From: a virus
Length of the DNA: 64,000 bases
IMG/VR virus record: IMGVR_UViG_3300033148_006706
Location: 75,905 to 139,904 of that record
Reading direction: 5' to 3' (one strand)
Under the pieces are notes generated by a model, which was not told the origin of the DNA, searched no databases, and worked only from the letters and a program-made list of their open reading frames with translations. Shown here piece after piece: positions 12,075 to 63,331 of the stretch (positions within the stretch are counted from its first letter, which is position 1; the number at the start of each line of letters is the position of its first letter). The translations under genes were made by a program, and so were the position numbers.

Positions 12075-12530
12075 TTAAAAAGTCTCTATGACATCAATTT
12101 CTCGTATCTTCTCCTCCAATTTCTCTCGTAATATATTCTTACTTTTGCGATAACTTGTATCTCTAGAATCGATATAATAAAGTAACTCATATATCTGCTC
12201 ACCTGTCAGCTCGATAAATATATCATGTGGTTGCATCAACAATTTTAAAGTATCTCGGCTAACGAGTCTAAAATCATTTCTTTTACAAGGGCCTAGAAAT
12301 CCTAAATCTCCATTTAGAATATCCACCCCCATAAACCCTTCTTCTTCTGAAATATTCAATGCCGGATTTTCAGTCCACACTACACGACCTATAATTTCTC
12401 CGTTTGTAACTATGTCTCCAGTTTTAAATTGAATATGAGGGGTCTTTTTATACTCTTCGATTTGTTTTCTTTTATATTCCTCTTCTAATTTATCTATAGC
12501 ATCTCTTAATTTTTGAAAAATTTCTTCCAT
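12075..12530 (-). CDS. Hypothetical protein
   Basis: 151-aa ORF with AGGAG RBS. Confidence 0.65.
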   Translation of the reverse strand: MEEIFQKLRDAIDKLEEEYKRKQIEEYKKTPHIQFKTGDIVTNGEIIGRVVWTENPALNISEEEGFMGVDILNGDLGFLGPCKRNDFRLVSRDTLKLLMQPHDIFIELTGEQIYELLYYIDSRDTSYRKSKNILREKLEEKIREIDVIETF

Positions 12531-12796
12531 ATTTTACTCCTGTTTTTAATTTTTATTTTTCTTTCTAATCGTTCTTGAAATCCGATAAGAGCTAAAGCAA
12601 ATTCCAGCACAAAATATTCTCTTGCAATATCTGTGTTACTATAAAACCGTTCTCCTAATATCCGATTATTAATAGCTTCGGTGATTTGATTAATATCCTG
12701 AATGAATGCGATTTCATTATCTTCTGACAATTCCTGTAAAAATGAAAAACCAACAGTAAACAATACCATTAGAATTTCACATATAATCTTTTGCAT
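12506..12796 (-). pseudogene. Truncated duplicate of the 12880-13290 gene
   Basis: First ~77 aa nearly identical to the 136-aa paralog, then runs into duplicated intergenic sequence. Confidence 0.7.
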
Positions 12797-12879
12797 ATTT
12801 ATACTCCCCTTCTAATTTGTCTATAGCATCTCTTAATCTTTGAAAAATTTCTTCCATATTTTACTCCTGTTTTTAATTT

Positions 12880-13290
12880 TTATTCCCCTTCCCAAACTTT
12901 CTCTTTTAATACCTCTTTAAGAGTTACATTATGCCAATTAATATTTTCTTTCCTATACTCATCGAAAAGGTATTCTACCATGTAGCCCAATATTCTTGAT
13001 ATTTTAATATCGTTTATCATTTCGATTTTATTTTCCTCACTTAAAAAACCGTAATTATCAATTCGTTCTTGAAATTCAATAAGAGCTAAAGCAAATCCCA
13101 GCACAAAATATTCTCTTGCAATATCTGTGCTACTATAAAACCGTTCTCCTAATATCCGATTATTAATAGCTTCGGTGATTTGATTAATATCCTGAATGAA
13201 TGCGATTTCATCATCTTCTGACAATTCTTGTGAAAATGAAAAACCAACAATAAACAATACCATTAGAATTACACACATAATCTTTTTCAT
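12880..13290 (-). CDS. Secreted protein (signal peptide)
   Basis: MKKIMCVILMVLFIVGFSFSQ signal-like N-terminus. Confidence 0.7.
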   Translation of the reverse strand: MKKIMCVILMVLFIVGFSFSQELSEDDEIAFIQDINQITEAINNRILGERFYSSTDIAREYFVLGFALALIEFQERIDNYGFLSEENKIEMINDIKISRILGYMVEYLFDEYRKENINWHNVTLKEVLKEKVWEGE

Positions 13291-13317
13291 ATTTATACTC
13301 CTTTGTCTTTAAATTTT

Positions 13318-14413: not shown

Positions 14414-15334
14414 TTAAACTAAGAAGTCAGGATATCCTCTGACAAAACATATTCTATCTAAACCAAATTCATCTATTATTTCCTGAAATCGCCTTCTAAA
14501 GGATACGCCACTTTTATACTTTGTGTATAGATCGCCTCCTCCGAAATCAAACCCTGATAAAAATATTTTGTCAAAACCTTCATACAATGCCTGTAAAATC
14601 CAAAAATACCCCGTATTACCTTTTCTATCATTATAGTAAAATACATTATTCCCTCTTGTACTATATAAACTAAACTTTTTACTTTTATAATTTTGTATTT
14701 CTCTAAAAAGTTTCTTATCCAATACTCCAATACGAGTAAATGGCAAATCTTCTTTATATGCATGGTTACACCCCCATAGCTCGCCTTTCCAATTTTGTAT
14801 AAAAGAAATATCAGGCTCCTCTGTCCTGGTTACCCCGTTACCTAAAATGAGCACCTTATTAGAGAAATCATTATATATGGTTTCCCCATACAATTTTACT
14901 TCTTCTTGTATAATTCCATCATAATCATTCTCTATAAAATATATATTATCACTAAAATTAAAATCATGAGATAGCTTCTGTAAATCCCGTATCCAGTTAG
15001 CTTTATTCTTCTTTTCGTGATTGGTTCTTCCTAGGTTAATTCCGCAAATATAGATATTCTTATATTCCTCGGTTAATGCATGATAAATGGCAAAAGAAAA
15101 TAAATTGAGATTAGAACCATCCGTATTACATAATATATCAAAATTTTTACCAAATTCTCTTTTATACTCCTGCGCTTTAAACAAGCCAAGATTATCTACA
15201 AATATTTTACTAAATTGAATTGATTTATCTAGAAAACGAAAATTGAATCCCCATATTTCCTCTTTCCATTCTTTAACAAATTGTTTAGATTCTTTACATA
15301 GATTATCGTTGCCGAGAATTAGGATACTTTTCAT
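14414..15334 (-). CDS. Tandem two-domain sialyltransferase-like protein (GT42/Maf-like); first domain degenerate
   Basis: VLILGNGVTR, WGCN, NTG, ALYEGFDKIFLSGFDFGG. Confidence 0.6.
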   Translation of the reverse strand: MKSILILGNDNLCKESKQFVKEWKEEIWGFNFRFLDKSIQFSKIFVDNLGLFKAQEYKREFGKNFDILCNTDGSNLNLFSFAIYHALTEEYKNIYICGINLGRTNHEKKNKANWIRDLQKLSHDFNFSDNIYFIENDYDGIIQEEVKLYGETIYNDFSNKVLILGNGVTRTEEPDISFIQNWKGELWGCNHAYKEDLPFTRIGVLDKKLFREIQNYKSKKFSLYSTRGNNVFYYNDRKGNTGYFWILQALYEGFDKIFLSGFDFGGGDLYTKYKSGVSFRRRFQEIIDEFGLDRICFVRGYPDFLV

Positions 15335-16488
15335 ATTAAAAAATCGGGCTGTTTTCCAATGAATGACATATTCTTAATCCCAAATTCTTTACTAACAGAT
15401 AAAAACTGTTTTTTAAATAGCGCCCCATTTTGTTCACTGGAATTATAAATATTTGAATTATCAAAATCAAATCCTCCTAAAACAATCTCTTCAAATTCTT
15501 CATAAATAGCCTGTAAAACAAGAAGAATTCCTGTACTCCAATTTCTCTGTTCTTTGAATAGAAAGACTCCCAATTGCTTATTTTCATATTCTTCAAATCC
15601 ATCAAACTTTAAAGTAAATATATCATAATCATAATTATTGTTAAGCTTATATTGAAGCGCCTTATCAACCATATATTTTTCTCTACAGCCAACTGCTTTA
15701 ATAGTCCTTACATTTTCCACTTCTCTATATGCTTCATTACATACCCATATCCTATGTCGCCACTTATTTATAAATTTTTTAACTGATGGTTGTAGACGAG
15801 ATTTGCCATTCCCCAATATTAAAACTTTTTCATTTAATACAATATGAGCGTTCTTATTATTTACCTCAAGATGATTTATCCCCTTTAAATACAATTTTGC
15901 ATAATAATCTGAAGGCTCATCACTCATAATAAAAGGCTTATGATCCTTCCCTATAAATATTACTTTATCCAGTCCAAGCTCATCTCGTATAAGTCGCCAA
16001 TTCCTTACCCATTTCTCCTTATTCTTTATATGATGATTTTGTACATATATATCTTTTCCACCTAGATCAAATCCAATTACATAAATTTTATCATATCCTT
16101 TTATTATAGCCCTTGCTACCAAGGTACTGCCAGAGTCTTTAATAAATAATCCAGGAATATCAATCATTTCTACACCCGGAAGCGTTTTAGCTTTTGGATT
16201 TTTTCCAAATATGCGATATTTACCCCCGTATCTTTTTTTATATTCTACAATTTCTTTTAATGCCGATATATCGCCAATTATTAAATCTAATCTTGGAAGC
16301 GAACCGTTATAGTATTCTAAATAAGCTGAATTACAGGCCCAAATTTCCCCGCTCCATTTTTGTATAAAATCCTGATGTTCTAATCTTGATATTCCATTTC
16401 CAACAATAAGCACTTCTTTTATTTTTTTTATAGAATTCTGGTGGCTGTTATTTAAATTTTTATTTTCAATAATTGAAGGATTTTTCAT
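15331..16488 (-). CDS. Tandem two-domain sialyltransferase-like protein (GT42/Maf-like)
   Basis: Two copies of GNGxSR...WxCN...(S/T)G...Y.xI...GFD, matching the CstII-type motif order. Confidence 0.65.
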   Translation of the reverse strand: MKNPSIIENKNLNNSHQNSIKKIKEVLIVGNGISRLEHQDFIQKWSGEIWACNSAYLEYYNGSLPRLDLIIGDISALKEIVEYKKRYGGKYRIFGKNPKAKTLPGVEMIDIPGLFIKDSGSTLVARAIIKGYDKIYVIGFDLGGKDIYVQNHHIKNKEKWVRNWRLIRDELGLDKVIFIGKDHKPFIMSDEPSDYYAKLYLKGINHLEVNNKNAHIVLNEKVLILGNGKSRLQPSVKKFINKWRHRIWVCNEAYREVENVRTIKAVGCREKYMVDKALQYKLNNNYDYDIFTLKFDGFEEYENKQLGVFLFKEQRNWSTGILLVLQAIYEEFEEIVLGGFDFDNSNIYNSSEQNGALFKKQFLSVSKEFGIKNMSFIGKQPDFLI

Positions 16489-17597
16489 GCTATATATTTT
16501 TCTCTATTTAAGAATTTTGGTTGCCCCTCAACAAATTTAATTTTATTTACATTAAACCAGCATCTTATTAAATTCATCTGTTTTCTATACGTTAGCCCTT
16601 CTACCGCCCTGTTCTTATAGATATGATCTCCCCCAAAATCAAAACCACTTAACCATATCATATCATACTCTTCATACAAAGCTTGTACTAAAAGAAGCAT
16701 GCCCGTTTTAAAAGAATTAGTATAAAACAGCTTAACATCTTTGTTGACTTTTTCTATAGTATAAACATCATAATCAAGATTATGCTTCTCTTTAAACTCA
16801 AGCATATCAAAAACTAAATGCGTAAACCTGGTTCCTACTCTATCAATTCTATTAAGATTATTATATTCTCTGTAATATGCATCATTACAAACCCATATTT
16901 CTTCTCTCCAATTTTTTATAAATCTTCTATTAAGAGAATTCTCTCTACTTCTTCCATTTCCTAAAATAAGCACGTTATTAGTTCTTTTAACATTCTCTTC
17001 TTGATAACTTTTTACAGGATAATTAACAAAAAAGTTTTCTTTTAAATGATCTTCTCCATTCATATATTTTCTAGCATAACTATTTATAGGCATCTCACTT
17101 AATATGAAAGGCTTATGATCTATTCCCACAAAATGAATTCTTTCTAATCCAAACACCCTTGCTATTTTTCTCCAATTATCCACCCATTTACTTTTATTTC
17201 TTCTTTCATGATTTTTTACATATATATCTTTTCCGCCCAGATCAAATCCTACTAAAAATATCTTACCATAATTTTCATATAATGCCTTTACAACAAGCGT
17301 TGACCCGGAATCTTTAATATATCTTTCTGGAATTTCAACTTTTTTTACTTCTGGTATACTTAATGCTTTTGTATTTTTACATAATAATTTATAATTTAAT
17401 TTATATCTTTTTTTAGCTCTATAAGCTTCTTTTAATGCATCCTTATCTCCTATTAGAATATCTATTCTTGGAATTTTTTTATCAATCAGGTCTTTAAAAG
17501 CCCAATTGCAAGTCCAAATTTCTCCTTGCCATTTTTGTATAAAATCCTGATGTTCTAATCTTGATATTCCGTTACCTATAATAAGAACTTCTTTCAC
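16485..17597 (-). CDS. Tandem two-domain sialyltransferase-like protein (GT42/Maf-like)
   Basis: Same duplicated motif set; paralog of the adjacent genes. Confidence 0.65.
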   Translation of the reverse strand: MKEVLIIGNGISRLEHQDFIQKWQGEIWTCNWAFKDLIDKKIPRIDILIGDKDALKEAYRAKKRYKLNYKLLCKNTKALSIPEVKKVEIPERYIKDSGSTLVVKALYENYGKIFLVGFDLGGKDIYVKNHERRNKSKWVDNWRKIARVFGLERIHFVGIDHKPFILSEMPINSYARKYMNGEDHLKENFFVNYPVKSYQEENVKRTNNVLILGNGRSRENSLNRRFIKNWREEIWVCNDAYYREYNNLNRIDRVGTRFTHLVFDMLEFKEKHNLDYDVYTIEKVNKDVKLFYTNSFKTGMLLLVQALYEEYDMIWLSGFDFGGDHIYKNRAVEGLTYRKQMNLIRCWFNVNKIKFVEGQPKFLNREKYIA

Positions 17598-28892: not shown

Positions 28893-29462
28893 TTATTCTA
28901 ACAGTTTAATTTCTTTTTTAATTTCCTTCTCTAACAAAAGAGAAGTATCTTTAGTGTTTACTGTAGTTTGACGTCCTCCGGTAATTTCTGCAAGCTTTTT
29001 CATAAACTCTTCTCCTTTATCTCCACCAGGGCCAATATAAATAATATTGACTGGCGTTGCAAGTTTAAGCGCTTCTTCTATTGCTTGAGATTCAGAATCG
29101 GGTAAGCCATCGCTAATAACAATTATTGTTTGTCTTTTACTCCGCGGCAATGTCGTACATAAACGGAAAGCTTCTGCCATATTTGTTTCTCCTGCTGGAA
29201 ATGTTTCAATTCCTAGACAAGCGCTTTCTGAAAATGAAATATATGATGCCCTTGGATAGTCTTGAATTGCTTCCATTAAAGCATCAAACTTGGATTTACC
29301 CTTCACATATTCTGACATCGATCCAGAGCAATCAAGCAATAAAGTTAAACTTGATTGCGCTTCAATTCTTTTCTTTTCTTTTTTTATGTCAGCTAAACCT
29401 TTTTTTAAGCTATCTGACAATGATAGCATTGAATCTTTTTTAAAAACTAAAGCTTTTTTCAT
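28893..29462 (-). CDS. von Willebrand factor A domain protein
   Basis: MIDAS DCSGSM, T, ISDG. Confidence 0.85.
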   Translation of the reverse strand: MKKALVFKKDSMLSLSDSLKKGLADIKKEKKRIEAQSSLTLLLDCSGSMSEYVKGKSKFDALMEAIQDYPRASYISFSESACLGIETFPAGETNMAEAFRLCTTLPRSKRQTIIVISDGLPDSESQAIEEALKLATPVNIIYIGPGGDKGEEFMKKLAEITGGRQTTVNTKDTSLLLEKEIKKEIKLLE

Positions 29463-30073
29463 ATTTCTACCCTCTCTTCTATTTCATTTAATATTTTATT
29501 GCATAATACAAAGAGCCGATCAATACAAGCCTCTAATTCTCCCTCGCTGTCAGTACTCTCAGCTCTCGCTATTATGCTTGAAATTTTTTCAAATTGCCTC
29601 TCAGCTTTTTCAATAAATTCATCATCAATTAGGTCTTGAAAATAACAATGTTTAACAAGCGTGAGAAGATTAATAGGAATATATTCAATGTCTTTCTTTT
29701 TTATTGAGTATTTGGCTTTCGCTATTACAGCAGGCAATGGCCTAATTATTTCAAAGTTTTCATGCATAAAAACTCTATGAGTCCCCGTATGAGAAAGCCA
29801 TTTATTCTTTTTATCTACAATACAAAAGGCTGGAGGCGGCCTATCATTCCTTTTTTGAAGAGGATAAAATCTAAAAGATCTTCTTCCTCTTGAATTTAAA
29901 CTGCACACGATAAAGACCCTTCTGGTATAAAATTCCTTTAAATTTGGAGTCCATACCATCGGATCTGATTCATGATTCGGAACAATTTTAGTACATGCGG
30001 TTGCCACGAACTTAGACGGATTCTCTTTATCAAATGTAAACATGAAACCGTCTCCATTTTGCACTTTTCCCAC
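29459..30073 (-). CDS. Hypothetical protein
   Basis: 204-aa ORF coupled to the VWA gene; start uncertain. Confidence 0.55.
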   Translation of the reverse strand: MGKVQNGDGFMFTFDKENPSKFVATACTKIVPNHESDPMVWTPNLKEFYTRRVFIVCSLNSRGRRSFRFYPLQKRNDRPPPAFCIVDKKNKWLSHTGTHRVFMHENFEIIRPLPAVIAKAKYSIKKKDIEYIPINLLTLVKHCYFQDLIDDEFIEKAERQFEKISSIIARAESTDSEGELEACIDRLFVLCNKILNEIEERVEI

Positions 30074-30305
30074 GAGGCAGGCCTTTCTGTGGCCTCCAAA
30101 ATCCTTCTGCTCGTGCTAATCGATACATGTATCGATCAACTGCTCGAGCCAGATCAACTGATTTTTCAGTAACTTCACAACAAGCTAAACTTACTTGTTG
30201 CCTAAAATCTTGAGGCATTTCTTCTTCTAACCACCGCCATCGTCGATAAGCGATGGCAAGAGCATAGGGAAAATGTGGACGAGGGTCATTGTATATCTTC
30301 TTCAT
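30030..30305 (-). CDS. Hypothetical protein
   Basis: AGGAGG RBS. Confidence 0.55.
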   Translation of the reverse strand: MKKIYNDPRPHFPYALAIAYRRWRWLEEEMPQDFRQQVSLACCEVTEKSVDLARAVDRYMYRLARAEGFWRPQKGLPRGKSAKWRRFHVYI

Positions 30306-30342
30306 TTTATTTTCCTCCTTAACATCATTTAATTTTTAGGAA

Positions 30343-30648
30343 TTAAATTCCAGATAGCTTTCTTTTTATTTTCAAATGCGATTCATACAGACAGCGAATC
30401 TTTCCTTGATTGTCAATTCTAAGCAAAGCTTCACCAAGCGTATTTTCAGTACCAAAAGTCTCTCTTATTCCATTACATTCTTTGTAAATTCTCCAGAAGA
30501 ATTTGGTTTTATAACCATCCCAGTTACCTGATCGGGAAATGATTCTAGATTCTTTAATGATTTCATATCCACGGAAGTACCATTTCCCGTTTTTTCTTTT
30601 AGCTTCTTTTTTTAATTCCTTGATTTTAGTCTTATCATTGTCATTCAT
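30343..30648 (-). CDS. Hypothetical early protein
   Basis: AAGGAG RBS; downstream of repeat copy A. Confidence 0.6.
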   Translation of the reverse strand: MNDNDKTKIKELKKEAKRKNGKWYFRGYEIIKESRIISRSGNWDGYKTKFFWRIYKECNGIRETFGTENTLGEALLRIDNQGKIRCLYESHLKIKRKLSGI

Positions 30649-30696
30649 TTTTCTCTCCTTTACATTTTAAATTCATTAGTTATAATACTACATTCT

Positions 30697-30760
30697 GCTT
30701 ACAATGTAAATATATAACTGCACCTGGAAATTAAACTGGGGCTAGCCACCAGGATAGCTA
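30697..30760 (-). repeat. tRNA-like intergenic element, copy A (degenerate)
   Basis: AGCTAT-CCTGGTGGCTAG-degenerate T arm-...TTAC ATT GTAAGC. Confidence 0.7.
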
Positions 30761-30762
30761 TT

Positions 30763-31041
30763 CTATAAAATAACTACATCAGCATCGACGGGCTCATATA
30801 AAACCACATGCCCGCTGGCTTCTTCAATACTCTTGACAGAAGCTCCCGCCCAGCCAAACGGGCCTCCGACTCCGAAAGGGTCAATTTTAATAGCATTGAA
30901 AAAATCAACGCTATCCATGCCTTCCCAAACCTTGTTGTCATCAACAAAGAAAACTGCGTAAACATCTTCGCCCTTGTCGACGACTTGATCTTTTATTACT
31001 GTGTCATACTGCACAGTAAATTTCACTGCTACCTTTTTCAT
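30763..31041 (-). CDS. Hypothetical early protein (start revised to MKKVAV)
   Basis: AAGGAG RBS immediately after repeat copy B. Confidence 0.65.
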   Translation of the reverse strand: MKKVAVKFTVQYDTVIKDQVVDKGEDVYAVFFVDDNKVWEGMDSVDFFNAIKIDPFGVGGPFGWAGASVKSIEEASGHVVLYEPVDADVVIL

Positions 31042-31067
31042 TTTTTCTCTCCTTATCATAATATTCT

Positions 31068-31133
31068 GCTTACAACATAAGCATATAACCATGCCCAGGA
31101 ATTGAACCCGAGCCTTATACCACTAGAATGAAT
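31068..31133 (-). repeat. tRNA-like intergenic element, copy B
   Basis: TCTAGTGGTATAAG D-loop-like segment, GCTCGGG-TTCAATT-CCTGGGC T arm, GCTTAT-GTT-GTAAGC hairpin. Confidence 0.8.
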
Positions 31134-31147
31134 AATTGGAATTATAA

Positions 31148-31453
31148 TTATTTATGATAAAATCTTGCTTTTATTCTCCCACTCTTAGTTGTGTACAATT
31201 CAATAGCATTCTCCCACTCTACACTTGAAGGGGGGTCACCATAGATAACAACCTCTCTTCTTTCACTGTCATCTACCCACTTATAAAAAGTTTCCTCCTC
31301 TATCCAAGAGTGATCCGAAAATATTACTTTTGCGTAATCCCTAAATACTTGATAATCTATCTCTCCATCCGTATAGAAGCACATCGCTACATCTATACCC
31401 TGCTCATAAATAAGGTAATCGGGAAGGTCGCTTATCCTAATAATATCTCCCAT
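31148..31453 (-). CDS. Hypothetical acidic early protein
   Basis: AAGGAG RBS. Confidence 0.6.
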   Translation of the reverse strand: MGDIIRISDLPDYLIYEQGIDVAMCFYTDGEIDYQVFRDYAKVIFSDHSWIEEETFYKWVDDSERREVVIYGDPPSSVEWENAIELYTTKSGRIKARFYHK

Positions 31454-31501
31454 CCTTATCTCCTTTACGTTTTAGACCCGCCGGTCATAATATTATATTT
31501 C

Positions 31502-31546
31502 GCTTACAACGTAAGCTTACAATTGTACCCAGGAATTGAACCAGGG
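31502..31546 (-). repeat. tRNA-like intergenic element, copy C (5' truncated)
   Basis: CCCTGG-TTCAATT-CCTGGG then GCTTAC-GTT-GTAAGC. Confidence 0.75.
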
Positions 31547-31548
31547 AA

Positions 31549-32118
31549 TTATTCATAATAATTAAAAAGAACAGGCATTATAAAAGCCATATACCGGAAT
31601 TTATTATACTGCTGCGATGATACAAGAATCAAAGGATTAAAAGGTTCCGCAGGTATTTGTACTTCCAGAAAATAACCGGAAGGAATATTCTTTAAATAGT
31701 CACGTAAATGATCGTATTCGATAGTCCAAGTTTCTTTTGTGTTCCAGTTTTTGGACATTTTAATGATTATGTCCGTGTATATGAGCGGTATCGAGCTAAC
31801 AGGATATTGAACTAAATATTGAGTTTGTAATTTATATTTCTGCATCACCCGCTTGTGATCTGGGAAATTAATATTATCAGATTGAATCAGATATTTATTT
31901 TTTAGATCAATATAATAAATTCCTTCGGGCAAAATTATATCCTCGTCTGTAGTTTCAACAATATACATTCTCTTAGTATCGGTACTTACAAGAGAATAAC
32001 CTGTTGAGAGGATATGACCGAAAAACGGCAACCGAGTGCCTTTCCCGGCAGCTACCTTCAAGTATTTTATCAGCGGTTTTAAATCTTGATGAATAAAAAT
32101 CTGATCTTTTTCTTTCAT
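31549..32118 (-). CDS. Half-size beta-sliding-clamp-like protein
   Basis: LVSTDTKRM, NFPDHKRVM and C-terminal FIMPV resemble DnaN domain II-III motifs. Confidence 0.55.
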   Translation of the reverse strand: MKEKDQIFIHQDLKPLIKYLKVAAGKGTRLPFFGHILSTGYSLVSTDTKRMYIVETTDEDIILPEGIYYIDLKNKYLIQSDNINFPDHKRVMQKYKLQTQYLVQYPVSSIPLIYTDIIIKMSKNWNTKETWTIEYDHLRDYLKNIPSGYFLEVQIPAEPFNPLILVSSQQYNKFRYMAFIMPVLFNYYE

Positions 32119-32139
32119 TTTGTTATCCTCCGTTTTATT

Positions 32140-32598
32140 CTATCTATCAAATTTAAAATAAACTCTCGGTTCAATCTCCCCAGGACGTCCAACGTCAAAC
32201 CCGATGGGCATGATCGGTTCTAATTCATAAGCTCCTAGAAAGCCCTCGAGAAGATTCTCTTGATCGATTTGATCAAGAGTAAGAAAGATTGCCTCTTCAG
32301 CTGGAGATAGGGAAGCGCCAACATTACCTAAGAACCAGAGTTGACCGAAATTGAGATTTTTAACCTCAACTTCAACTCTGTACCATGGGTCATCAGCAAG
32401 AATGATCCATTTTGGAAAACTCTGCCCCCGCAAGGCTTTCCTAAGATCATTTACAGATGGGAATTTATACTTCCCGTTTGTATTGATCGTTAGAGATAGA
32501 GAGCGAGGGGCTGGAGCTCCTTCTTTCTTTACTCCATCCCAAGAGAATCCAGGGCGGATTGAAAAAGAATATTTCATTTCTCTCATTTCTCCTTTCAT
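32140..32598 (-). CDS. Hypothetical early protein, paralog of 33212-33676 (true start probably 32577)
   Basis: IRPGFSWDG...QLWFLGNVGASL...DVGRPG shared with the paralog. Confidence 0.7.
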   Translation of the reverse strand: MKGEMREMKYSFSIRPGFSWDGVKKEGAPAPRSLSLTINTNGKYKFPSVNDLRKALRGQSFPKWIILADDPWYRVEVEVKNLNFGQLWFLGNVGASLSPAEEAIFLTLDQIDQENLLEGFLGAYELEPIMPIGFDVGRPGEIEPRVYFKFDR

Positions 32599-32611
32599 TA
32601 TAATATATTCT

Positions 32612-32674
32612 GCTTACAACGTAAGCTTACAGCCGTGCCCAGGAATCGAACCTGGGCTAACCACCAGGACGGCT
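32612..32674 (-). ncRNA. tRNA-like intergenic element, copy D (most perfect)
   Basis: AGCCGT/ACGGCT closing stem, CCTGGTGGTTA loop, GCCCAGG-TTCGATT-CCTGGGC T arm, then GCTTAC-GTT-GTAAGC. Confidence 0.7.
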
Positions 32675-32686
32675 AATTCCAATTTG

Positions 32687-32917
32687 TTAGTACTGCAATT
32701 TTTCCAAAAGCCACACATACCCATCCCATTCATAGCGAATAGGATGAACGATAAACCCGTCTTCTCTCGTATGGTTGCGAAGATATCTTTCTACAGCTCC
32801 AGGGCTTCTCTTTATAATTCTGTATGGATGATCTTCCTGCTGCTGCAGAAACCACATGAGATCAATGATCTCATCCTTCTTTCCGTTCTCCCAAATTTTT
32901 ACCACGTCATTTCTCAT
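32687..32917 (-). CDS. Small hypothetical protein
   Basis: GAGGTG RBS. Confidence 0.6.
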   Translation of the reverse strand: MRNDVVKIWENGKKDEIIDLMWFLQQQEDHPYRIIKRSPGAVERYLRNHTREDGFIVHPIRYEWDGYVWLLEKLQY

Positions 32918-32934
32918 TTCTTCACCTCTCCATT

Positions 32935-33111
32935 TTAATAATCTTCTCCAGGTTCTCTTCTTAGAACCTTTTGAAGTCTAATTTTATATGCTCGAGGACT
33001 TAGAACTTCTAAGTCCTCATAATTTTTGACGAAATCAAAGCACTTTTCCATATTCCCCTCAAAGAGGACATCTGCCCTTTTGAAGGAAACCACAACCCAC
33101 TTTTTCTCCAT
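32935..33111 (-). CDS. Small hypothetical protein, 58 aa (MEKKWVVVSF...), not in the ORF track
   Basis: AAGGAG RBS; follows hairpin copy E. Confidence 0.55.
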   Translation of the reverse strand: MEKKWVVVSFKRADVLFEGNMEKCFDFVKNYEDLEVLSPRAYKIRLQKVLRREPGEDY

Positions 33112-33141
33112 CTTTCTCTCCTTTCTTTTTCATAATCTTCT

Positions 33142-33159
33142 ACTTGCCATACGGCGAGC
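33142..33159 (-). repeat. Repeat copy E (downstream hairpin only)
   Basis: GCTCGCC-GTAT-GGCAAGT-AGAA, matching the hairpin of copy F. Confidence 0.65.
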
Positions 33160-33211
33160 TATATTCCTATAAATATATCACTTAGCGAACTTTTGGCCCC
33201 AGCTTCCCCCT

Positions 33212-33676
33212 CTAAAATTTTAGAAAAAGTGCAGGCTCGGGCCCACCGGGACGCCCCAAATCCAAGCTTACAGGTCGGATATGTATCCCACCGTGAATGT
33301 CCAAGAACTTGTCGAGAAGATTCATTCGGCTCCCATCATCGGATGTGACATATTCTTGGTTAGCCTGATTCATAACTGAGAGAATTTCTCTCTCGGCTAA
33401 ATTGAGAGTTGCTCCAACTTGGCCAAGAAAGAACAATTGATCAAATGTCATATCCCTGATATCACATTTGACTTCGATTCTCACATCTGGGCCATCATTA
33501 ACAATAGTCCAGATAAAGCCATGCCCGTCCAGGGCTTCCCTCATATCTCTTACTGACGAGAAACTCCGCTCTCCGTCAGTGAGAATTATTAAAGTCATTG
33601 AGTGCGGGTCTGGCACTCCATGCTTTTTTGCCCCATCCCAGAAGAATCTAGGGCGAATTCTAAAAGACCGCTTCAT
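33212..33676 (-). CDS. Hypothetical early protein, paralog of 32140-32598
   Basis: IRPRFFWDG...QLFFLGQVGATL...DLGRPG. Confidence 0.7.
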   Translation of the reverse strand: MKRSFRIRPRFFWDGAKKHGVPDPHSMTLIILTDGERSFSSVRDMREALDGHGFIWTIVNDGPDVRIEVKCDIRDMTFDQLFFLGQVGATLNLAEREILSVMNQANQEYVTSDDGSRMNLLDKFLDIHGGIHIRPVSLDLGRPGGPEPALFLKF

Positions 33677-33894
33677 TTTCTTCCTCCTTTAATAATATTA
33701 TTAGTCTCCTTTAACAGAGACTCTTCACTATAATGCCCCCCGCAATATAGACAATATAAGTAATCTCCATACCCATATATCTTTATATCAGATAAAGATA
33801 TGGGATCGCCAACATTAAGCGCTTCAATTGCACATTTAACATGATAGCGCAAAGGATTCGCTATCACTTCATTATACATAGTACTATTTTTCAT
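33673..33894 (-). CDS. Small zinc-finger-like protein, paralog of 34376-34600
   Basis: MYNE...PLRYHVKC...LYCLYCGG.YSEESL. Confidence 0.65.
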   Translation of the reverse strand: MKNSTMYNEVIANPLRYHVKCAIEALNVGDPISLSDIKIYGYGDYLYCLYCGGHYSEESLLKETNNIIKGGRK

Positions 33895-33920
33895 TTTCTT
33901 TCTCCATTTAATGATTTTCT

Positions 33921-33986
33921 ACTTGCCATACGGCAAGTTACAGCCGTGTCCGGGAATCGAACCCGGGCCTAACCACCAGGACGGCA
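33921..33986 (-). ncRNA. tRNA-like intergenic element, copy F
   Basis: GCCGT/ACGGC stem, CCTGGTGGTTAG, CCGGG-TTCGATT-CCCGG, then ACTTGCC-GTAT-GGCAAGT. Confidence 0.7.
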
Positions 33987-33992
33987 ATCCCT

Positions 33993-34220
33993 CTATTCCT
34001 CAAATTGCTCCCATCGGGAGCTATAAATATATGCTCCCGCGCAAGCGAGCATCTGCACGTGTTTATCACAAAACTCGCCGCCATCACCTTGACCCCACCA
34101 CACATGCCAGACGCCTTCAGCGTCTTCCGGATACTCGAGAATCCCTGCAGGGTTCTCTAGCCCGCAATACGGACAAGATTCAGCATCTCTTAAAATTTCG
34201 TCAATTGTCTTCTTCTTCAT
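33993..34220 (-). CDS. Small Cys-rich protein
   Basis: CPYC and CDKH; coupled to neighbours. Confidence 0.55.
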   Translation of the reverse strand: MKKKTIDEILRDAESCPYCGLENPAGILEYPEDAEGVWHVWWGQGDGGEFCDKHVQMLACAGAYIYSSRWEQFEE

Positions 34221-34383
34221 TTTCTTCTTCCTTTAGTCTGTCACAATAGACATTACCATTTTCATCTACTCCCGAGTTACATCCGCCACCAAATGGCGAA
34301 CATGACAACCCGGACGACTTCCAAGTGTAATCATAATACGGGCAATCATCACCCGACATAATTTGAGACGGTTCTTTATTCAT
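34201..34383 (-). CDS. Small Cys-rich acidic protein
   Basis: AGGAG RBS; overlaps neighbours. Confidence 0.5.
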   Translation of the reverse strand: MNKEPSQIMSGDDCPYYDYTWKSSGLSCSPFGGGCNSGVDENGNVYCDRLKEEENEEEDN

Positions 34384-34600
34384 TTTTCTCTCCTCTTATA
34401 ATTTCATTGCTTTCCTTCATTAATGACTCTTCACTATATTGTCCTCCACAATACGGACAATATAATGAACCACCATACTTATATATCTTTATATTAGATA
34501 AAGATATATAATCATCAATGTCAAATGCTTCGATTAAACATTTGACGTGATAGCGCAAAGGATGCGCTACCGCTTCATTGTACATAGCATTGTTTCTCAT
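34376..34600 (-). CDS. Small zinc-finger-like protein, paralog of 33673-33894
   Basis: PLRYHVKC...LYCPYCGG. Confidence 0.65.
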   Translation of the reverse strand: MRNNAMYNEAVAHPLRYHVKCLIEAFDIDDYISLSNIKIYKYGGSLYCPYCGGQYSEESLMKESNEIIRGEKNE

Positions 34601-34624
34601 TTTCTCTCTCCATATAAAATTTTA

Positions 34625-34822
34625 TTAGCTTGTCCGCCATCCACAATTAAGACAGCGAACAAGGGGATCATCCCCCTCCAATCCGGTTACCTGAAGCTCC
34701 TGCTCTCCGCATTTAGGGCAGGGCTCAATCGGATACCCGGAACTCATTCCAAGTACCCATTCCACACCAACAAGGTTAAAAACCTTGCCGGATATTTTAA
34801 TGGTTTTTTCTATTTTCTCCAT
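34625..34822 (-). CDS. Small zinc-ribbon protein
   Basis: CPKC...CLNC. Confidence 0.6.
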   Translation of the reverse strand: MEKIEKTIKISGKVFNLVGVEWVLGMSSGYPIEPCPKCGEQELQVTGLEGDDPLVRCLNCGWRTS

Positions 34823-35924
34823 TCTCTCCCTCCTCTAGCTTTTTTATAATTACTTCCATACTATCAGTCTGGAAGTAATTACTAAGACGGCTTAACATCA
34901 TGTCAACTGTGCCGTCTTCTTTATCTGGAAAAAGCTCAATGCTTTTTTCCAGTTTCCTTTGTTCTTTGAATAGGCTATTAACCCGTTCTCTTAGTTGCTC
35001 AATTTTAGCGCTGTATTTTTTTACTTTCCTTTCAGCGCTCTTTTGAGCAATTATTTTTTCATTGAGTATCCCCCTATATTTCTCAGTCACATCTTTTTCT
35101 CTTTCATAAGACGTAACTTCCTTTTCCCCCCAACAGCCGCCCCTCATACCATCGGGGGATTCCTCAATATAATGACTTTCAACTCTCTGAACAGGGTACA
35201 CCGTATATACCCGCTGTTCATCAAGGTCAATCTCAATAAGTTTAGAACTAAGAATTCCTTTTATTCCCTCTCCTTCGGATATTTTTCCACGTATCCGAGT
35301 TTCGAGCTCAATTCTCTCAGCTTGGCGCTTAGCTTCGCCGAGAGAAGATAGAGCCCCTTTCATTCTAGTAATCTTTTTTTGAATTTTTTTAATTTTGGGG
35401 AGTATCTCTTTTTTCAGGTGGGTGACTTTTTTAAATCGGGGCAGTAAAACTTTACGCCCCCAAGCCAGGGCTTCTTGGTGCCGTTTTCTTAAATCGGCTT
35501 CCCTGGCTTCTTTTTCAGCTATTTTATACAAGCGATAGGCTTCTCCCATCGCTTGCCATTCTTCTTTTTTTAAATATTTCTCAATTCCTGACTCCCAACT
35601 GCCATCTTCGTTCGGGTAGAAGACAGCAATCCTCTCCTCTCTATCGTCAGGGAAAACCTTAACGACAGAGACTCTGGGAGTCCATGTCCTCAGGCTGACT
35701 TTAGTGGGAACTTGCCAATCCCACTTTCTAATTTCAACCCGAGGCTCTGCTTTTCGGAGCGGTGTGGCGATAAAAAACCGCTCCTTTTCAACCAATCTAC
35801 ATTCCCACCACTCGCCAATGGTGGGCTGAAAACAAGAACGGCGATCTATCAAAATCACCTTCCCGTTTTCGTTTTTTCCAAAGAACGGCCCTTTCGAGCC
35901 GTTCTTTACTTGGAGGAGTTTCAT
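34797..35924 (-). CDS. Hypothetical coiled-coil protein with N-terminal OB/TRAM-like beta domain
   Basis: 375-aa ORF with heptad-rich segments; domain call is tentative. Confidence 0.6.
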   Translation of the reverse strand: MKLLQVKNGSKGPFFGKNENGKVILIDRRSCFQPTIGEWWECRLVEKERFFIATPLRKAEPRVEIRKWDWQVPTKVSLRTWTPRVSVVKVFPDDREERIAVFYPNEDGSWESGIEKYLKKEEWQAMGEAYRLYKIAEKEAREADLRKRHQEALAWGRKVLLPRFKKVTHLKKEILPKIKKIQKKITRMKGALSSLGEAKRQAERIELETRIRGKISEGEGIKGILSSKLIEIDLDEQRVYTVYPVQRVESHYIEESPDGMRGGCWGEKEVTSYEREKDVTEKYRGILNEKIIAQKSAERKVKKYSAKIEQLRERVNSLFKEQRKLEKSIELFPDKEDGTVDMMLSRLSNYFQTDSMEVIIKKLEEGENGENRKNH

Positions 35925-35932
35925 TTAAATAT

Positions 35933-36307
35933 TTAAATACAAAACTGATCTACGCAAACCAGCATTGATACTCGATCAGCTAGTTTGCATACCCTAGCCT
36001 TTCCCAACGGCCGACCGCTTGCCTTTATTGCGGTTAGCGTCGGGAAAGACACCAAAACGATATCGACGCTGCTGTCAGCCTCAAGCTCATCAAGAGCTTG
36101 AATGATAGCTGGAGGCAGCTCAAAAGCCATCTCCACATCGACCCAACCTCTAGAATTCTCGATCTTTTTCTCGATTTGCTTGACCGAGAATCTTCTTACA
36201 GTTTCACAGTCGACACGTGACAGCACCGTGCCATCTGTGAACTTGAAATCGTGCGGACTGGAGAAATTTACAACTCGCAGTCCATTCTTCAATTTTACTT
36301 TTGTCAT
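35933..36307 (-). CDS. First gene of the early cluster, hypothetical (start revised to MTKVK)
   Basis: AGGAGG RBS downstream of the structured leader. Confidence 0.65.
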   Translation of the reverse strand: MTKVKLKNGLRVVNFSSPHDFKFTDGTVLSRVDCETVRRFSVKQIEKKIENSRGWVDVEMAFELPPAIIQALDELEADSSVDIVLVSFPTLTAIKASGRPLGKARVCKLADRVSMLVCVDQFCI

Positions 36308-36340
36308 TTTTCCTCCTAATCTAATCATTTTTTCGTTTCC

Positions 36341-36480
36341 AGCCGCGTGGGATTCGAACCCACCCCGGCTAATGCCGGTTCCCGCATCGGAATTTCACCT
36401 TGCGGCCGATGCCCCTGTCTGCAGCCAGGCGTCCGGGACTTTTTTACGGTGGGACACTCACCGAAATTTCATTTTTAATT
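36341..36480 (-). ncRNA. GC-rich structured 5' leader ending in a canonical tRNA T arm (copy G)
   Basis: Hairpins CGGTG/CACCG, CCTG/CAGG, GCATCGG/CCGATGC and CCGGC/GCCGG, then GTGGG-TTCGAAT-CCCAC-GCGGCT. Confidence 0.6.
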
Positions 36481-36486
36481 AACTGC

Positions 36487-36515
36487 ATTATACCCCCCTT
36501 TGCAAAAAAAGTCAA
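36487..36515 (-). promoter_or_regulatory. Consensus sigma70 promoter for the early cluster
   Basis: TTGACT (36515-36510), 17-nt spacer, TATAAT (36492-36487), with an A/T-tract UP-like region upstream. Confidence 0.85.
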
Positions 36516-36630
36516 TAGTTTTTTCTAAAAAAATAAAAAAATTTTAATTTTTTTCTGGAAAAATAGTAAACACATGTTTACTACTCCTATATCTCTAAAA
36601 TCTCTAATTCTCCTGTCAAATTTAAGATTG

Positions 36631-39318
36631 CTATATCAGCTCATCCCCAAATCCCCATACCTGATTTTTATCATAATAATCAGCTATATTTATTTCAAGT
36701 TCAAGTGGAATTCCTTTATTCTCCGGTCTATCTTTCTCAAATTCTTCTTTTGCTACTTTAAACAACTCATTTACCTCTTCTCTATGTGTATATCCTACAA
36801 TAGCGTCATGTACATTTCCACATAATCTGCTTTTCAAATTATTTTCTTTAATATATTTGTTTAATTTAATAGCCATTAATATCATAATTGCGTTTTCATA
36901 ACTTTGTACTGGAGAATTTAACGCTATATTTTTAAGATTTTTAATCACTCCTTTTCTATCATCCTTTCCTTGATATTTTAATTGTGGCAGTCTCCTGATT
37001 GCCCCAAACGGGCTTCTTACGTACCCATCAATTTCAGCCTGCCCTTTTATCTCATTTGTACCCACAATTTTATCTATCCAACTCTTCAATCCACTATATT
37101 TTTCAAAATATTTACCTCTTATATCACTAGCTACTGCCCAACATTTAGCAAAATAAGATTTATTAGAAATAGATTTAAACATATCAGATTTATCATCATT
37201 TAATAATGAAAGCATTTTATCAACCTTGTTTTGCAAATTAAAATCATTTATATATTTAATTACGTCCCTCTCACCCCATTCTTTCTCAATAACAGTTTTA
37301 GCAAAATTAAAAGCTGTTGCACCGAATTCTAATTGAAAATTGATTCCCTTGGCTTTAAATCTTATCTCTTTTATATTATCATCCCCAGCTTTTTTTAATT
37401 TAATAAACTCTTCAAGAGATAAATCCCTTCTTAGTACAAATTGAGCAGTCATACTATGCATATCGCCACCCAATTCTGTAAAAACCTTCTTCATTTCTTT
37501 ATCTTGACTATAAATAGCTCCAATACGTAACTGAAATCCCGATGCGTCTTTTTCATCTATAACATAATCCTCGCTCGGGGGAATAAATATCCTGCGATAC
37601 CATTTAGCTCTTTCTCCGTGTTTCGGAATATTTTGTCCATTCGGGTTTTGACTCCAATTCCTGTGAGAACTTGTAAGAAAGGGGCCAAATGTGGGGTGTA
37701 TTCTATCATCACGCTTCCTATATTGAAAGAATCCTGAATTATCTTCTCTTTTGCCCACAAAGGTATTCATAAGAGTCTTCAGGGCCCTGTACTCTTGAAT
37801 AAGCTTAGCCTCTTTATGTCCATCGTTAATCCATTGAATTAACTGATCATCTCCAGTTAAATATATATTATTTATTTTTAAATCTGCATTTAATTTTTTA
37901 ATTAAACCGGGCTTAGGCTTTTCTTTACTTCTGCCATAATCTTTCCATCCTAACATTTCCAATACAGCCCCCAATTCATTACCGCTATCCAGGTCAAAGT
38001 CAACTTTTAAAGATTTTATTATTTCATCTTTTTTTTCACTTATTAATTTCTCCAATTCTAATGAATATTTTTCAAGTAAATTCCAATCAACACACATCCC
38101 CTCTAATTCTATATCTAGAAAAACATTCACAGCTGGCATAACAATATCATAAAAATATTTTTTTAAACTCCATTGGCTCTCAGGAAATTTTTCTTGTACA
38201 GGAAAGGCTCTATCAATTCTTTCTATTTCCTTTACTTGTTGTTCATATATCTGATATGTAACAATAGCATCCATAATAGCATAGGGATATCTAACTTCTT
38301 CTGGAATCCTGCTATAATCATTTTTACATTCAGGATATTTCTTTTTATACAAGTCTAATTCTCTATCATATCCCCCGTGTATTGTATAGAGCCATGCATC
38401 ACTTTTAAGTGATGAGCGTTGCATTTCGTTTATAACATGACTGGCATTCCATGTATCATGATATATGTTGATATTTTCTCTAGGAACCCCTTTTAGAATG
38501 AAAAATTTTGTATCATATTTTCCATTTTGCATGATAAGCATTTTATTCTTAATAAATTCTGAAAAAAGATATATATCAACTTTCTTCCAATCTAATAAGT
38601 AACCGGTTATACCATCAAAGGAGATAGTTACTTCGAGTATTTCGCTATCAGGATGCCAGGGATCTAGTAATTTAGTTTCAATATCACAGGCCATCTTACA
38701 AGCTTTATCTTTATTAGCCTGCAGCCACACGTTAGGGTCCTCAATTACTTCTTTCTTTATTCTTTGTTTTTCTATTTTCGGAAATTCTATCATAAAAGCG
38801 TTTCTAATTTGATGTTTAGCAAAAATGTAAGACCAATTATCAAGGATTTTATTTTTTCTAGGGTTGATAAAATTATATAAATTGTCAATCGGGAAAATTA
38901 TAGAATCTAAATCAGGAGCATAAAAATAAGTTTTGTTAAATATAATATCATAAAAACCTTTGATATCTAAATCGTCGCTTTTAATAATAGAATATAACGC
39001 CCTGCCTACTGTAATAATTTTACTTTTTGGTTTTATATACTGCTTCAAGTCTATACATCTGTCGGCATAAAAATCAATTATTTTATTTGGTTCTTTATCT
39101 AAATTGAAATTGAAACAGTTCAAGACAAGTATATCTGCATCAACTATACTAGAAATAAATCTTAAGAAAATTTCTCTAGTTTTATAATTATAATTTTTAT
39201 CTAAAACAACTACAAAATCATAAGATTGATCTTTATTAGATTTAAATACTACTGAATCGATCATATTATAATATTTTTTAATATCGAGGTTTCTATTTAG
39301 AGGCTTACTAAAAATCAA
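36631..39318 (-). CDS. polA: Family A DNA polymerase with 3'-5' exonuclease and a UDG-like N-terminal domain
   Basis: Exo DIET, NGKYD, YAIMDA; PNGQNIP; motif A DASGFQLR, motif B RFKAKGINFQLEFG, motif C VHD. Confidence 0.9.
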   Translation of the reverse strand: MIFSKPLNRNLDIKKYYNMIDSVVFKSNKDQSYDFVVVLDKNYNYKTREIFLRFISSIVDADILVLNCFNFNLDKEPNKIIDFYADRCIDLKQYIKPKSKIITVGRALYSIIKSDDLDIKGFYDIIFNKTYFYAPDLDSIIFPIDNLYNFINPRKNKILDNWSYIFAKHQIRNAFMIEFPKIEKQRIKKEVIEDPNVWLQANKDKACKMACDIETKLLDPWHPDSEILEVTISFDGITGYLLDWKKVDIYLFSEFIKNKMLIMQNGKYDTKFFILKGVPRENINIYHDTWNASHVINEMQRSSLKSDAWLYTIHGGYDRELDLYKKKYPECKNDYSRIPEEVRYPYAIMDAIVTYQIYEQQVKEIERIDRAFPVQEKFPESQWSLKKYFYDIVMPAVNVFLDIELEGMCVDWNLLEKYSLELEKLISEKKDEIIKSLKVDFDLDSGNELGAVLEMLGWKDYGRSKEKPKPGLIKKLNADLKINNIYLTGDDQLIQWINDGHKEAKLIQEYRALKTLMNTFVGKREDNSGFFQYRKRDDRIHPTFGPFLTSSHRNWSQNPNGQNIPKHGERAKWYRRIFIPPSEDYVIDEKDASGFQLRIGAIYSQDKEMKKVFTELGGDMHSMTAQFVLRRDLSLEEFIKLKKAGDDNIKEIRFKAKGINFQLEFGATAFNFAKTVIEKEWGERDVIKYINDFNLQNKVDKMLSLLNDDKSDMFKSISNKSYFAKCWAVASDIRGKYFEKYSGLKSWIDKIVGTNEIKGQAEIDGYVRSPFGAIRRLPQLKYQGKDDRKGVIKNLKNIALNSPVQSYENAIMILMAIKLNKYIKENNLKSRLCGNVHDAIVGYTHREEVNELFKVAKEEFEKDRPENKGIPLELEINIADYYDKNQVWGFGDELI

Positions 39319-59119: not shown

Positions 59120-59378
59120 GTTGATTTCGGGCCGTGATTGTAGGGTTATCTTGTTGCGGAGATTCCCCCTACAATATTTATTTGCCCTATTATTTTGGGA
59201 AATTGAGTGGGTTAGAGCTCGAGGTTTGTCATAAGTTAACAATTATTGACTTAGCTACCTCGGGCAGAACCTAATCCGTTATAAATTTACAGAGGGATGC
59301 TTGATGTAGTGGGGTTTGATATAGTAACCCCGCAAATAATGCATGATTTTATTCTACAATAAGATTGGAGGGCAGAAT

Positions 59379-63212: not shown

Positions 63213-63331
63213 ATCGGCGTCACCAAATAAACATAAATGTAAAAGTATAGAAACTGTATATAGAAAAGTAAGTAAGAAGGTGATGGAGCAGGGGTTATTG
63301 TTTACATAAATTAATAGAGAGAAGGCGGTAG

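Follow-up and report, generated by a model that had tools for sequence, protein, structure and literature searches.

In animal mitochondrial tRNA punctuation, and in signals of the mascRNA/MALAT1 type, the shape of a tRNA guides the cuts that RNase P and RNase Z make in long transcripts. Plant mitochondria contain t-elements, noncanonical tRNA-like structures in mRNA precursors with GGTTCRANYCC as the motif of their T-arm; located at the borders of genes, they direct cleavage by RNase P and RNase Z at mRNA ends and are released as small RNAs, and the plant nad6 and ccmC messages end upstream of their own stop codons (Forner et al. 2007, PMC1920247). The Y RNA YrlA is a substrate of RNase P and of CCA addition (PMC4201824). 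In T4-type phages, promoter-early stem-loops (PeSLs), which join a terminator-like stem-loop to an early promoter between small early genes, mediate modular shuffling (PMC2839356, PMC4122927). This study concerns a 64,000-nucleotide stretch of phage DNA, hereafter the window, in which anticodon-less tRNA mimics coupled to a hairpin lie between the genes of a putative early operon. The window is the right end (bases 75905-139904) of G000, a complete phage record of 139,904 bp with direct terminal repeats (IMG/VR record IMGVR_UViG_3300033148_006706). The literature describes t-elements, Y RNAs and viral tRNA-like structures; no description of anticodon-less mimics punctuating phage operons was found in it.

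tRNA-like elements in a module of small genes

G000 has a GC content of about 30%, and a value of 36-42% distinguishes a module of small genes at window positions 30000-37000 from its surroundings (about 30% on both sides). The genes of this module are small and all on the minus strand, with the gene for a family-A DNA polymerase (36631-39318) immediately upstream; their proteins have almost no matches in Pfam or PHROGs. The sole strong sigma-70-like promoter match heading the module is located between the DNA polymerase gene and the leader, ahead of the first small gene (Table 1). A reasonable reading is that the module is an operon transcribed by the host polymerase, for which we infer the label "early". 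No true tRNA gene was detected by ARAGORN in G000 or in G001, a complete siphovirus-like phage of 69,946 bp (JGI sample 3300033150) that shares the module.

A sequence-only reading of the window had described an array of seven copies of one element, on the coding strand and just before the next ribosome-binding site. All seven loci exist: each occupies an intergenic gap, on the coding (minus) strand, directly upstream of the next Shine-Dalgarno site. Elements lie 0-13 nt past stop codons, and in the module each of the six intergenic gaps of at least 55 nt holds one, whereas gaps of 37 nt or less hold none. The seven are nevertheless not seven equal members, as only three are intact (C, A and E), two are decayed (F and D), one is a hairpin alone (B) and one is another element altogether (G).

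A covariance model, R1, was built from nine intact copies, which were drawn from three genomes and are paralogues or orthologues of one family. Its matches are confined to the module in both phages, at 56-71 bits for intact copies and 25-31 bits for decayed ones. Copy C, which the sequence-only reading had quoted as the best example, reads exactly as claimed, and the proposed structure is its minimum-energy fold (z -3.6). The minihelix of copy A contains one C-A and one U-U mismatch, and one U-G pair of copy E is replaced by C-G in a strain variant of G000 (L012). Copy F folds no better than shuffled sequences (z +0.5), and its remains overlap a sigma-70-like sequence, TTTACA-17-TATTAT (10/12 in the promoter scan); a relative of this copy on the contig L017 (1910-1961) has kept 14 of 14 pairs, six of which are G-U. 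The gap of copy B holds no R1 match and no tRNA-like part upstream of its hairpin, and the copy is homologous to hairpin-only copies of G001 (L008:1843-1868 and G001 60634).

The locus at 36341, which had been counted as a seventh family member, is a separate, cloverleaf-like element outside the minihelix family (13 bits against R1, E 0.7). Element G combines an acceptor of 7 bp with a 9-nt linker that contains GG and replaces the D-arm, a mini-hairpin of 4 bp and 6 nt at the place of the anticodon arm, a 5-bp variable-arm-like hairpin and the T-arm GUGGG-UUCGAAU-CCCAC, and the family hairpin is not present downstream of it. Only when its threshold is lowered does ARAGORN call it, labelling it tRNA-??? 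and assigning an anticodon of 4 bases, and in Rfam it matches a tmRNA T-arm fragment alone (14.3 bits). No orthologue was found in G001.

Table 1. Positions of the elements and of other features discussed in the text. Plain numbers are window positions; positions prefixed L008 or L013 belong to G001.
Feature	Position	Strand	Description	Support
Promoter	36487-36515	-	sigma-70-like, TTGACT-17-TATAAT	consensus scan, 11/12 matches; consensus match alone
Element G	36339-36417	-	79-nt cloverleaf-like leader element	fold z -2.1
Copy A, whole	33917-33988	-	intact	
Copy A, minihelix	33939-33988	-	acceptor, mini D-arm CCUG/UAGG, T-arm CCGGG-UUCGAUU-CCCGG	R1 63.3 bits, E 2e-16
Copy A, hairpin	33921-33938	-	ACUUGCC-GUAU-GGCAAGU, 2 nt past minihelix	fold, hairpin alignment
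Copy B	33142-33159	-	hairpin only, GCUCGCC-GUAU-GGCAAGU, one C-A mismatch	repeat family D16, hairpin alignment
Copy C, whole	32607-32676	-	intact, best copy	
Copy C, minihelix	32628-32676	-	U-AGCCGU / ACGGCU-G acceptor, linker CCUGGUGGUUA, T-arm GCCCAGG-UUCGAUU-CCUGGGC, then UA	R1 70.3 bits, E 1.5e-18
Copy C, hairpin	32612-32626	-	GCUUAC-GUU-GUAAGC, then AGAAUAU and Shine-Dalgarno site	fold, hairpin alignment
Copy D	31497-31565 (remnant plus hairpin 31502-31565)	-	remnant T-arm (U-U mismatch), no 5' acceptor strand, hairpin GCUUAC-GUU-GUAAGC intact	R1 24.9 bits
Copy E, whole	31063-31136	-	intact	
Copy E, minihelix	31084-31136	-	AUUCAU/AUGGUU acceptor (one U-U), linker UCUAGUGGUAUAAG, T-arm GCUCGGG-UUCAAUU-CCUGGGC (two G-U)	R1 69 bits
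Copy E, hairpin	31067-31083	-	UGCUUAU-GUU-GUAAGCA	fold, hairpin alignment
Copy F	30692-30761 (minihelix plus hairpin 30682-30761)	-	decayed minihelix (T-stem and acceptor broken), decayed hairpin	R1 29.1 bits
G001 intact copies	L008:467-536, 779-852, 5479-5551			
G001 orthologue of copy C	L008:5922-5991		decayed	
L017 minihelices	L017:737-808; 1910-1982		intact (hairpin of the latter decayed)	
tRNA-Ile(GAU)-like pseudogene	L008:4331-4408		decayed	Rfam tRNA 28.2 bits vs 29-bit cut-off
300-aa protein	58217-59119	+	PHROG 4400 (function unknown)	AlphaFold model pLDDT 85
Ro60/TROVE protein	L013:452-2041		529 aa	PF05731, 94 bits
Stem-bulge hairpin, G001	L013:293-363		~70 nt, ahead of TROVE gene	RF01656 weakly, 26.5 bits, E 0.03
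Same hairpin, G000	59123-59191		after nucleotidyltransferase gene	23.4 bits
RF-1-domain protein	61687-62040	+	117 aa, GGQ motif, no codon-recognition domain	
Mini-tmRNA-like element	G000:C1:13830-13945 (L028:131-246)		outside window	Rfam tmRNA 15.3 bits, 3' part only

The intact copies are mutually only 60-80% identical, and the structure claimed for them, an acceptor/T-arm mimic with neither anticodon arm nor encoded CCA that is followed by a hairpin, is backed by pairing and compensatory changes. Among the nine intact copies, 95.2% of the cells of the acceptor/T-arm helix (7+7 pairs) are paired, versus 30-44% with slid partners; with the decayed copies added, the value is 88.7%. As had been proposed, pairing survives changes on both sides, which affect 6 of the 14 helix pairs, and the observed covariation was reached by 2 of 500 shuffles. 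G-U pairs fill 20 of the 126 helix cells (16%). Since these would mismatch on the other strand, they point to selection on the sense-strand RNA, in line with the earlier argument from wobble pairs.

The positions that form a tRNA elbow are the ones kept invariant or nearly so. In the T-loop, U54, U55 and A58 are invariant and C56 is present in 8/9 copies; the loop is UUCRAYU in eight and UUUGAUU in one, and its closing pair G53-C61 is kept in eight and replaced by G-U in one. Just 10-14 nt of linker, with two invariant Gs, separate the 5' strand of the acceptor from the T-arm. The sequence-only reading had likened this linker to a D-loop, but in most copies it is better read, from the sequences, as a possible mini D-arm of 3-4 bp with GG in the loop, and one C-G to U-A double change separates copies at this place. 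Likewise, the stacking of an acceptor stem on the T-arm was correctly recognized, but the 6-7 bp of the acceptor and the 7 bp of the T-stem form a stack of 13-14 bp rather than the 12 bp of a tRNA. On its flanks, all nine copies have a U ahead of the stem, a purine discriminator and then UA.

In each of the seven intact copies with a hairpin, it begins 2-3 nt past the minihelix. Pairing reaches 98%, with compensatory changes in 2 of 6 pairs, and the hairpin is 100% identical between copy C and its G001 orthologue, where the tRNA-like part has decayed (78% minihelix identity, compared with 86% for the gene). Its loose core motif CTTRY..RYAAG is not enriched genome-wide (24 matches vs 15 expected in G000); the matches with family flanks, that is GC..GC/GU closing pairs and an A-rich tail, lie inside the module or at its edge. 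Rfam, searched in gathering and E-value modes over the window, G001 and the side regions, yields no family and only T-arm fragments, so that the known motif envisaged as a counter-argument did not emerge. The tRNA model RF00005 has no match in the window, and of the tmRNA model RF00023 only positions 346-363 (the T-arm) align, at 15.8 and 14.3 bits against a cut-off of 47 bits. ARAGORN makes a spurious tRNA-??? call at 32630-32722, overlapping copy C.

Cassette junctions and exchange

The element family is rare: relatives were sought by pattern scans of viral, metagenome and genome collections and by protein searches with the flanking genes, and were recovered solely from G001, from L017 (a 2.5-kb contig, sample 3300014911) and from L012, L018 and L031, near-identical strain variants of G000. 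In the scans with the minihelix DNA pattern, only the matches in G001 and L012 were true, and four matches in the genome collection were dismissed as chance, being devoid of any fold. The search with the DNA polymerase protein revealed no further relatives. Five further intact copies lie outside the window, in G001 and L017, and G001 also holds one remnant and two hairpin-only copies. The proteins of the gene families F2 and F3 are nearly orphan, matching only G001, L017 and the strain contigs L018 and L031.

G000 and G001 have in common only the module and a terminal region, and the sharing of a GC-rich island by phages that are otherwise so different suggests recent lateral transfer. The order and neighbours of seven gene families (F1, F2, F3, F5, F6, F8 and F9) differ among G000, G001 and L017, with an element at every joint. 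Each homology block opens with the first base of an element and runs as far as the stop codon that precedes the following element. The elements coincide with cassette junctions. Between G001 and L017, the F2/F3 genes are 95% identical, whereas the upstream element is only 63% (minihelix) and 70% (hairpin) identical, and the shared AGAAUAUAUUA leader resumes directly past the differing elements. By this comparison, the element upstream of the conserved F2-F3 cassette has been exchanged. The proposal that gene cassettes are shuffled at the repeats therefore gains support from elements placed at junctions, from gene orders that differ in three genomes and from a swapped upstream element.

Six-frame searches of the two complete phage records found no integrase or resolvase (PF00589 and PF00239), and for lack of either enzyme in the two phages a reading of the elements as attP or integron sites is ruled out. 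The simplest reading is then homologous recombination between the repeated modules during co-infection, supported by the finding that L018, near-identical to G000, comes from the same sample as G001. Recombination may run through the elements rather than merely beside them. As a separate observation, the G001 module includes a non-coding stretch of 1.4 kb (L008:2400-3800) with CTCTACAATACAAT-like short tandem repeats (around 3230-3340) and a terminator-like hairpin (around 2440-2470), which may be an origin or packaging region.

A candidate processing signal and competing explanations

The reading favoured here, tentatively and with somewhat less than even confidence, is that the elements are a cis-acting RNase P/RNase Z processing signal joined to a 5' stabilizing hairpin, and that they double as a recombination joint. 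Each would be a two-part RNA module in the long early transcript made by the host RNA polymerase. Part one folds like the top half of a tRNA, in which the acceptor stacked on the T-stem and the short D-like linker would form the elbow; its shape would be recognized by the host tRNA-maturation enzymes. RNase P would cut at its 5' border, and a 3' endonuclease, RNase Z or another, directly past the purine discriminator. Such cuts at the minihelix borders would divide the polycistronic RNA into messages of one or two genes. The hairpin would thereby end up at the 5' terminus of the next message, 1-3 nt from a monophosphorylated end if the cut falls after the discriminator, and might stabilize that message by shielding the end from 5'-end-dependent decay. 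In bacterial mRNA decay, 5'-terminal stem-loops protect messages. Because every cassette bears the same module of about 70 nt, the modules would also supply patches of homology for exchange, duplication and reordering of cassettes within and between co-occurring phages.

Several features are compatible with RNase P and RNase Z, namely the invariant U ahead of the stem, the purine discriminator, the UA (and not C) after it and the closely following hairpin. The RNase Z of B. subtilis cleaves CCA-less precursors on the 3' side of the discriminator and is blocked by CCA, while the RNase P of this species acts on CCA-less precursors in vivo, ahead of RNase Z if the 5' leaders are long (PMC1874595). 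A native CCA-less tRNA-Ala has U74 A75 (PMC1874595), the same dinucleotide as the UA of the elements. Cytidines past the discriminator inhibit RNase Z, and in the structure of the B. subtilis enzyme with tRNA the contacts are confined to the T-arm and acceptor stem (PMC7479834). No phage-encoded RNase Z-like metallo-beta-lactamase was found.

Other observations weigh against such a processing signal. A stack of 13-14 bp instead of 12 bp makes the RNase P register uncertain. In four of the nine intact copies, all from G001 and L017, the acceptor strand opens with UAG, which is also the stop codon of the gene before it; a cut at the 5' edge would there strip the message of its stop codon, and a ribosome terminating at such a UAG would melt the stem. 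A decayed minihelix stands beside an intact hairpin in two of five window copies and in one or two G001 copies, and together with the hairpin-only copies of the window (B) and G001 this implies that the tRNA-like part is dispensable at some junctions. Finally, the comparative set of two phages and one contig is small, which keeps the covariation counts modest, and the shuffle test is inflated by the relatedness of the copies. On balance, the structure is solid, and the proposed processing mechanism is plausible.

Other RNA-related features of the two phages bear on the alternatives. The 300-aa protein, whose model resembles, with Z 11-12 over about 170-190 residues, the head and neck domains of class II enzymes of the CCA-adding, CC-adding and poly(A) types, has a weak PF01743 match; its gene is 96% identical in DNA between G000 and G001, and in the latter it lies directly downstream of the module. 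The hairpin found after this gene in G000, and ahead of the TROVE gene in G001, weakly matches RF01656, a nematode sRNA family whose members we take to be Y-RNA-like stem-bulge RNAs. The TROVE gene is absent from G000, where a VWA protein (28893-29462) was considered as a Ro60 remnant and rejected. The 117-aa GGQ protein resembles peptidyl-tRNA hydrolases of the ArfB/PrfH type and might be a ribosome-rescue factor. The mini-tmRNA-like element combines a GGGGAUG/CAUCUCC acceptor containing a G3-U70 pair with a T-arm, encloses about 60 nt and has AAAA replacing CCA.

With these components in mind, released minihelices of about 45-50 nt might act in trans as stable tRNA mimics, the cutting of the mRNA being a by-product. 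We regard this as unlikely. The proposed targets are a host defence or toxin that senses the acceptor/T-arm, the phage CCA-adding-like nucleotidyltransferase or the Ro60 protein of G001. Conservation of the elbow (the two linker Gs and the mini D-arm with its compensatory change) beyond the strict needs of RNase P and RNase Z fits a role in trans, as does the presence of the nucleotidyltransferase in two phages without tRNAs; in G001, its gene is followed by the Y-RNA-like hairpin and the Ro60/TROVE gene, and in bacteria, Y RNAs that have a tRNA-like domain are both cleaved by RNase P and tailed with CCA (PMC4201824). Yet several copies have decayed next to a hairpin that was kept, G000 has intact copies and no Ro60, and the acceptor sequences vary so widely that they argue against any one sequence-reading protein partner. 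Lacking an anticodon loop, the mimics would be no decoy for anticodon nucleases, and the nucleotidyltransferase belongs to a large family frequent in phages (2294 relatives), so its presence says little. Processing in cis and the RNA-related genes could also be joined in one picture, which we consider improbable: self-sufficient cassettes of mimic, 5' hairpin, leader and one or two genes would be expressed wherever they landed and would move without an integrase between lytic phages of 140 and 70 kb, producing stop-less messages wherever the stop codon sits in the acceptor stem, whose products would be handled by a phage tRNA-world toolkit (the GGQ-only release-factor-like protein, the mini-tmRNA-like RNA, the CCA-adding-like nucleotidyltransferase, the Y-like RNA and, in G001, Ro60).

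Three further readings dispense with tRNA-directed cleavage. Generic intercistronic stability elements, similar to REP/BIME sequences or to the stem-loops of PeSLs, would block 3'-to-5' exonucleases, their GC-rich helices would set differential expression within the operon, and the likeness to tRNA would be incidental or ancestral. The repeated, intergenic, sense-oriented and structured nature of the elements suits this idea, and so do their position right past stop codons, the hairpin-only versions that fill equivalent gaps and the T4-type PeSLs that also flank mobile cassettes (PMC2839356, PMC4122927); but a block to exonucleases needs no invariant T-loop, linker Gs, purine discriminator or UA, the two helices remain separate units at a fixed spacing of 2-3 nt, and neither a RAYT-like transposase nor a terminator U-tract accompanies them, so the idea seems quite unlikely. 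It is likewise improbable that the elements are what remains of a former phage array of tRNA genes after loss of the anticodon arm, devoid of any function as RNA and persisting merely as repeated DNA that happens to favour recombination. A tRNA-Ile(GAU)-like pseudogene does occur inside the G001 module, between a cassette and a sigma-70-like promoter, with intact D- and T-arms and broken acceptor and anticodon stems, which suggests descent of the module from an array of phage tRNA genes, with the mimics derived from such genes once the anticodon arm was lost. Copies F, D and G1_6 are visibly decaying, and the G001 orthologue of copy C has diverged faster in its minihelix than in neighbouring genes (78% vs 86% identity). 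Degraded tRNA or attP remnants had been named as a counter-case in the sequence-only reading; the intact copies covary, and no integrase is present. Neutral decay would not leave 6 of 14 pairs with compensatory changes on both sides, or keep pairing at 95% among copies of 60-80% identity, nor would it explain why the L017 relative of copy F is intact while its G000 counterpart is broken, or why the same internal deletion, T-loop and linker Gs were kept in 9/9 copies. Pure decay cannot account for the compensatory changes. A promoter function, with hairpin and AT-rich tail marking transcription starts of the sigma-70 type or as an N4-like hairpin promoter, is very improbable. It could draw on the overlap of copy F with TTTACA-17-TATTAT and on a TATAAT downstream of the copy C hairpin; at the scan threshold, though, no site is associated with any element except that decayed copy, the spacing of candidate hexamers differs among copies, and a virion RNA polymerase like that of N4 is missing from both phages. 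The N4 type is ruled out by the lack of a giant virion RNA polymerase, as the large open reading frames (ORFs) comprise a tape-measure protein and one unknown in G001 and a tail-like 2241-aa ORF in G000.

Some features of the window touch none of these readings. A tandem duplication of 803 bp, 89-97% identical, covers a D12-class adenine methyltransferase gene at 62529-64000, beside the terminal repeat, and another methylase gene is found at 59881-60936. Repeat families D3, D6, D8 and D9 (12471-13301 and 14750-17544) probably fall within paralogues and have no connection with the elements.

Comparison with known systems

tRNA punctuation has been described in mitochondria and for a few non-coding RNAs of eukaryotes. 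Should host RNase P and RNase Z indeed cut at the mimics, it would serve bacterial viruses in operon expression as well, as a further level of control over phage genes that currently escapes gene callers and Rfam. The coupling of mimic and 5' hairpin would offer a concrete, testable way to insulate the genes of synthetic bacterial operons. The coincidence of elements with cassette joints hints at a possible mechanism by which unlike phages trade orphan early genes, often anti-defence genes, without site-specific recombinases.

Among the described systems, integron attC arrays share with the module small co-oriented genes under one promoter, structured imperfect repeats whose shape is conserved more than their sequence, and the reshuffling of cassettes. 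Unlike integrons, neither phage has an integrase, a resolvase or attC core sites, and the conservation of T-loop and elbow points to RNA and not to folded single-stranded DNA. The PeSLs are alike in that short conserved motifs flank cassettes swapped between related phages; the present element is instead a tRNA mimic with a hairpin, and has no promoter match save that of decayed copy F.

With tmRNA (RF00023), the elements share acceptor/T-arm/D-loop mimicry without an anticodon, but only the T-arm aligns, below the cut-off, and they contain no tag-coding module. YrlA is also a tRNA mimic lacking an anticodon, though a circularly permuted one, whereas the phage elements follow the normal tRNA order; the Ro60-binding stem is absent from them, and the Y-RNA families of Rfam give no match. 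Compared with a canonical tRNA, the T-loop and the G53-C61 pair are present, and a cloverleaf with an anticodon arm and a 7-nt loop is lacking. Mitochondrial punctuation and mascRNA/MALAT1 involve complete tRNAs or cloverleaf mimics in eukaryotes, in contrast to the elements of this bacterial virus, which have no anticodon arm.

The closest resemblance in function is to the plant t-elements. Copies C, A, E and G1_1 match GGTTCRANYCC exactly, a tRNA-like fold, here backed by covariation, lies next to an mRNA end, and the element is sometimes located upstream of the stop codon. The t-elements differ in being organellar rather than viral, in not forming a repeated array and in having neither a coupled downstream hairpin nor a link to cassette exchange; cleavage, established for them, would apply to the phage elements by analogy. 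Sequence homology between the two is neither expected nor seen; the t-elements represent a functional class and not a homology family. It is thus plausible, on these structural parallels, that the phage family belongs with the tRNA-like processing signals, to which it would add a coupled hairpin and the behaviour of a cassette junction.

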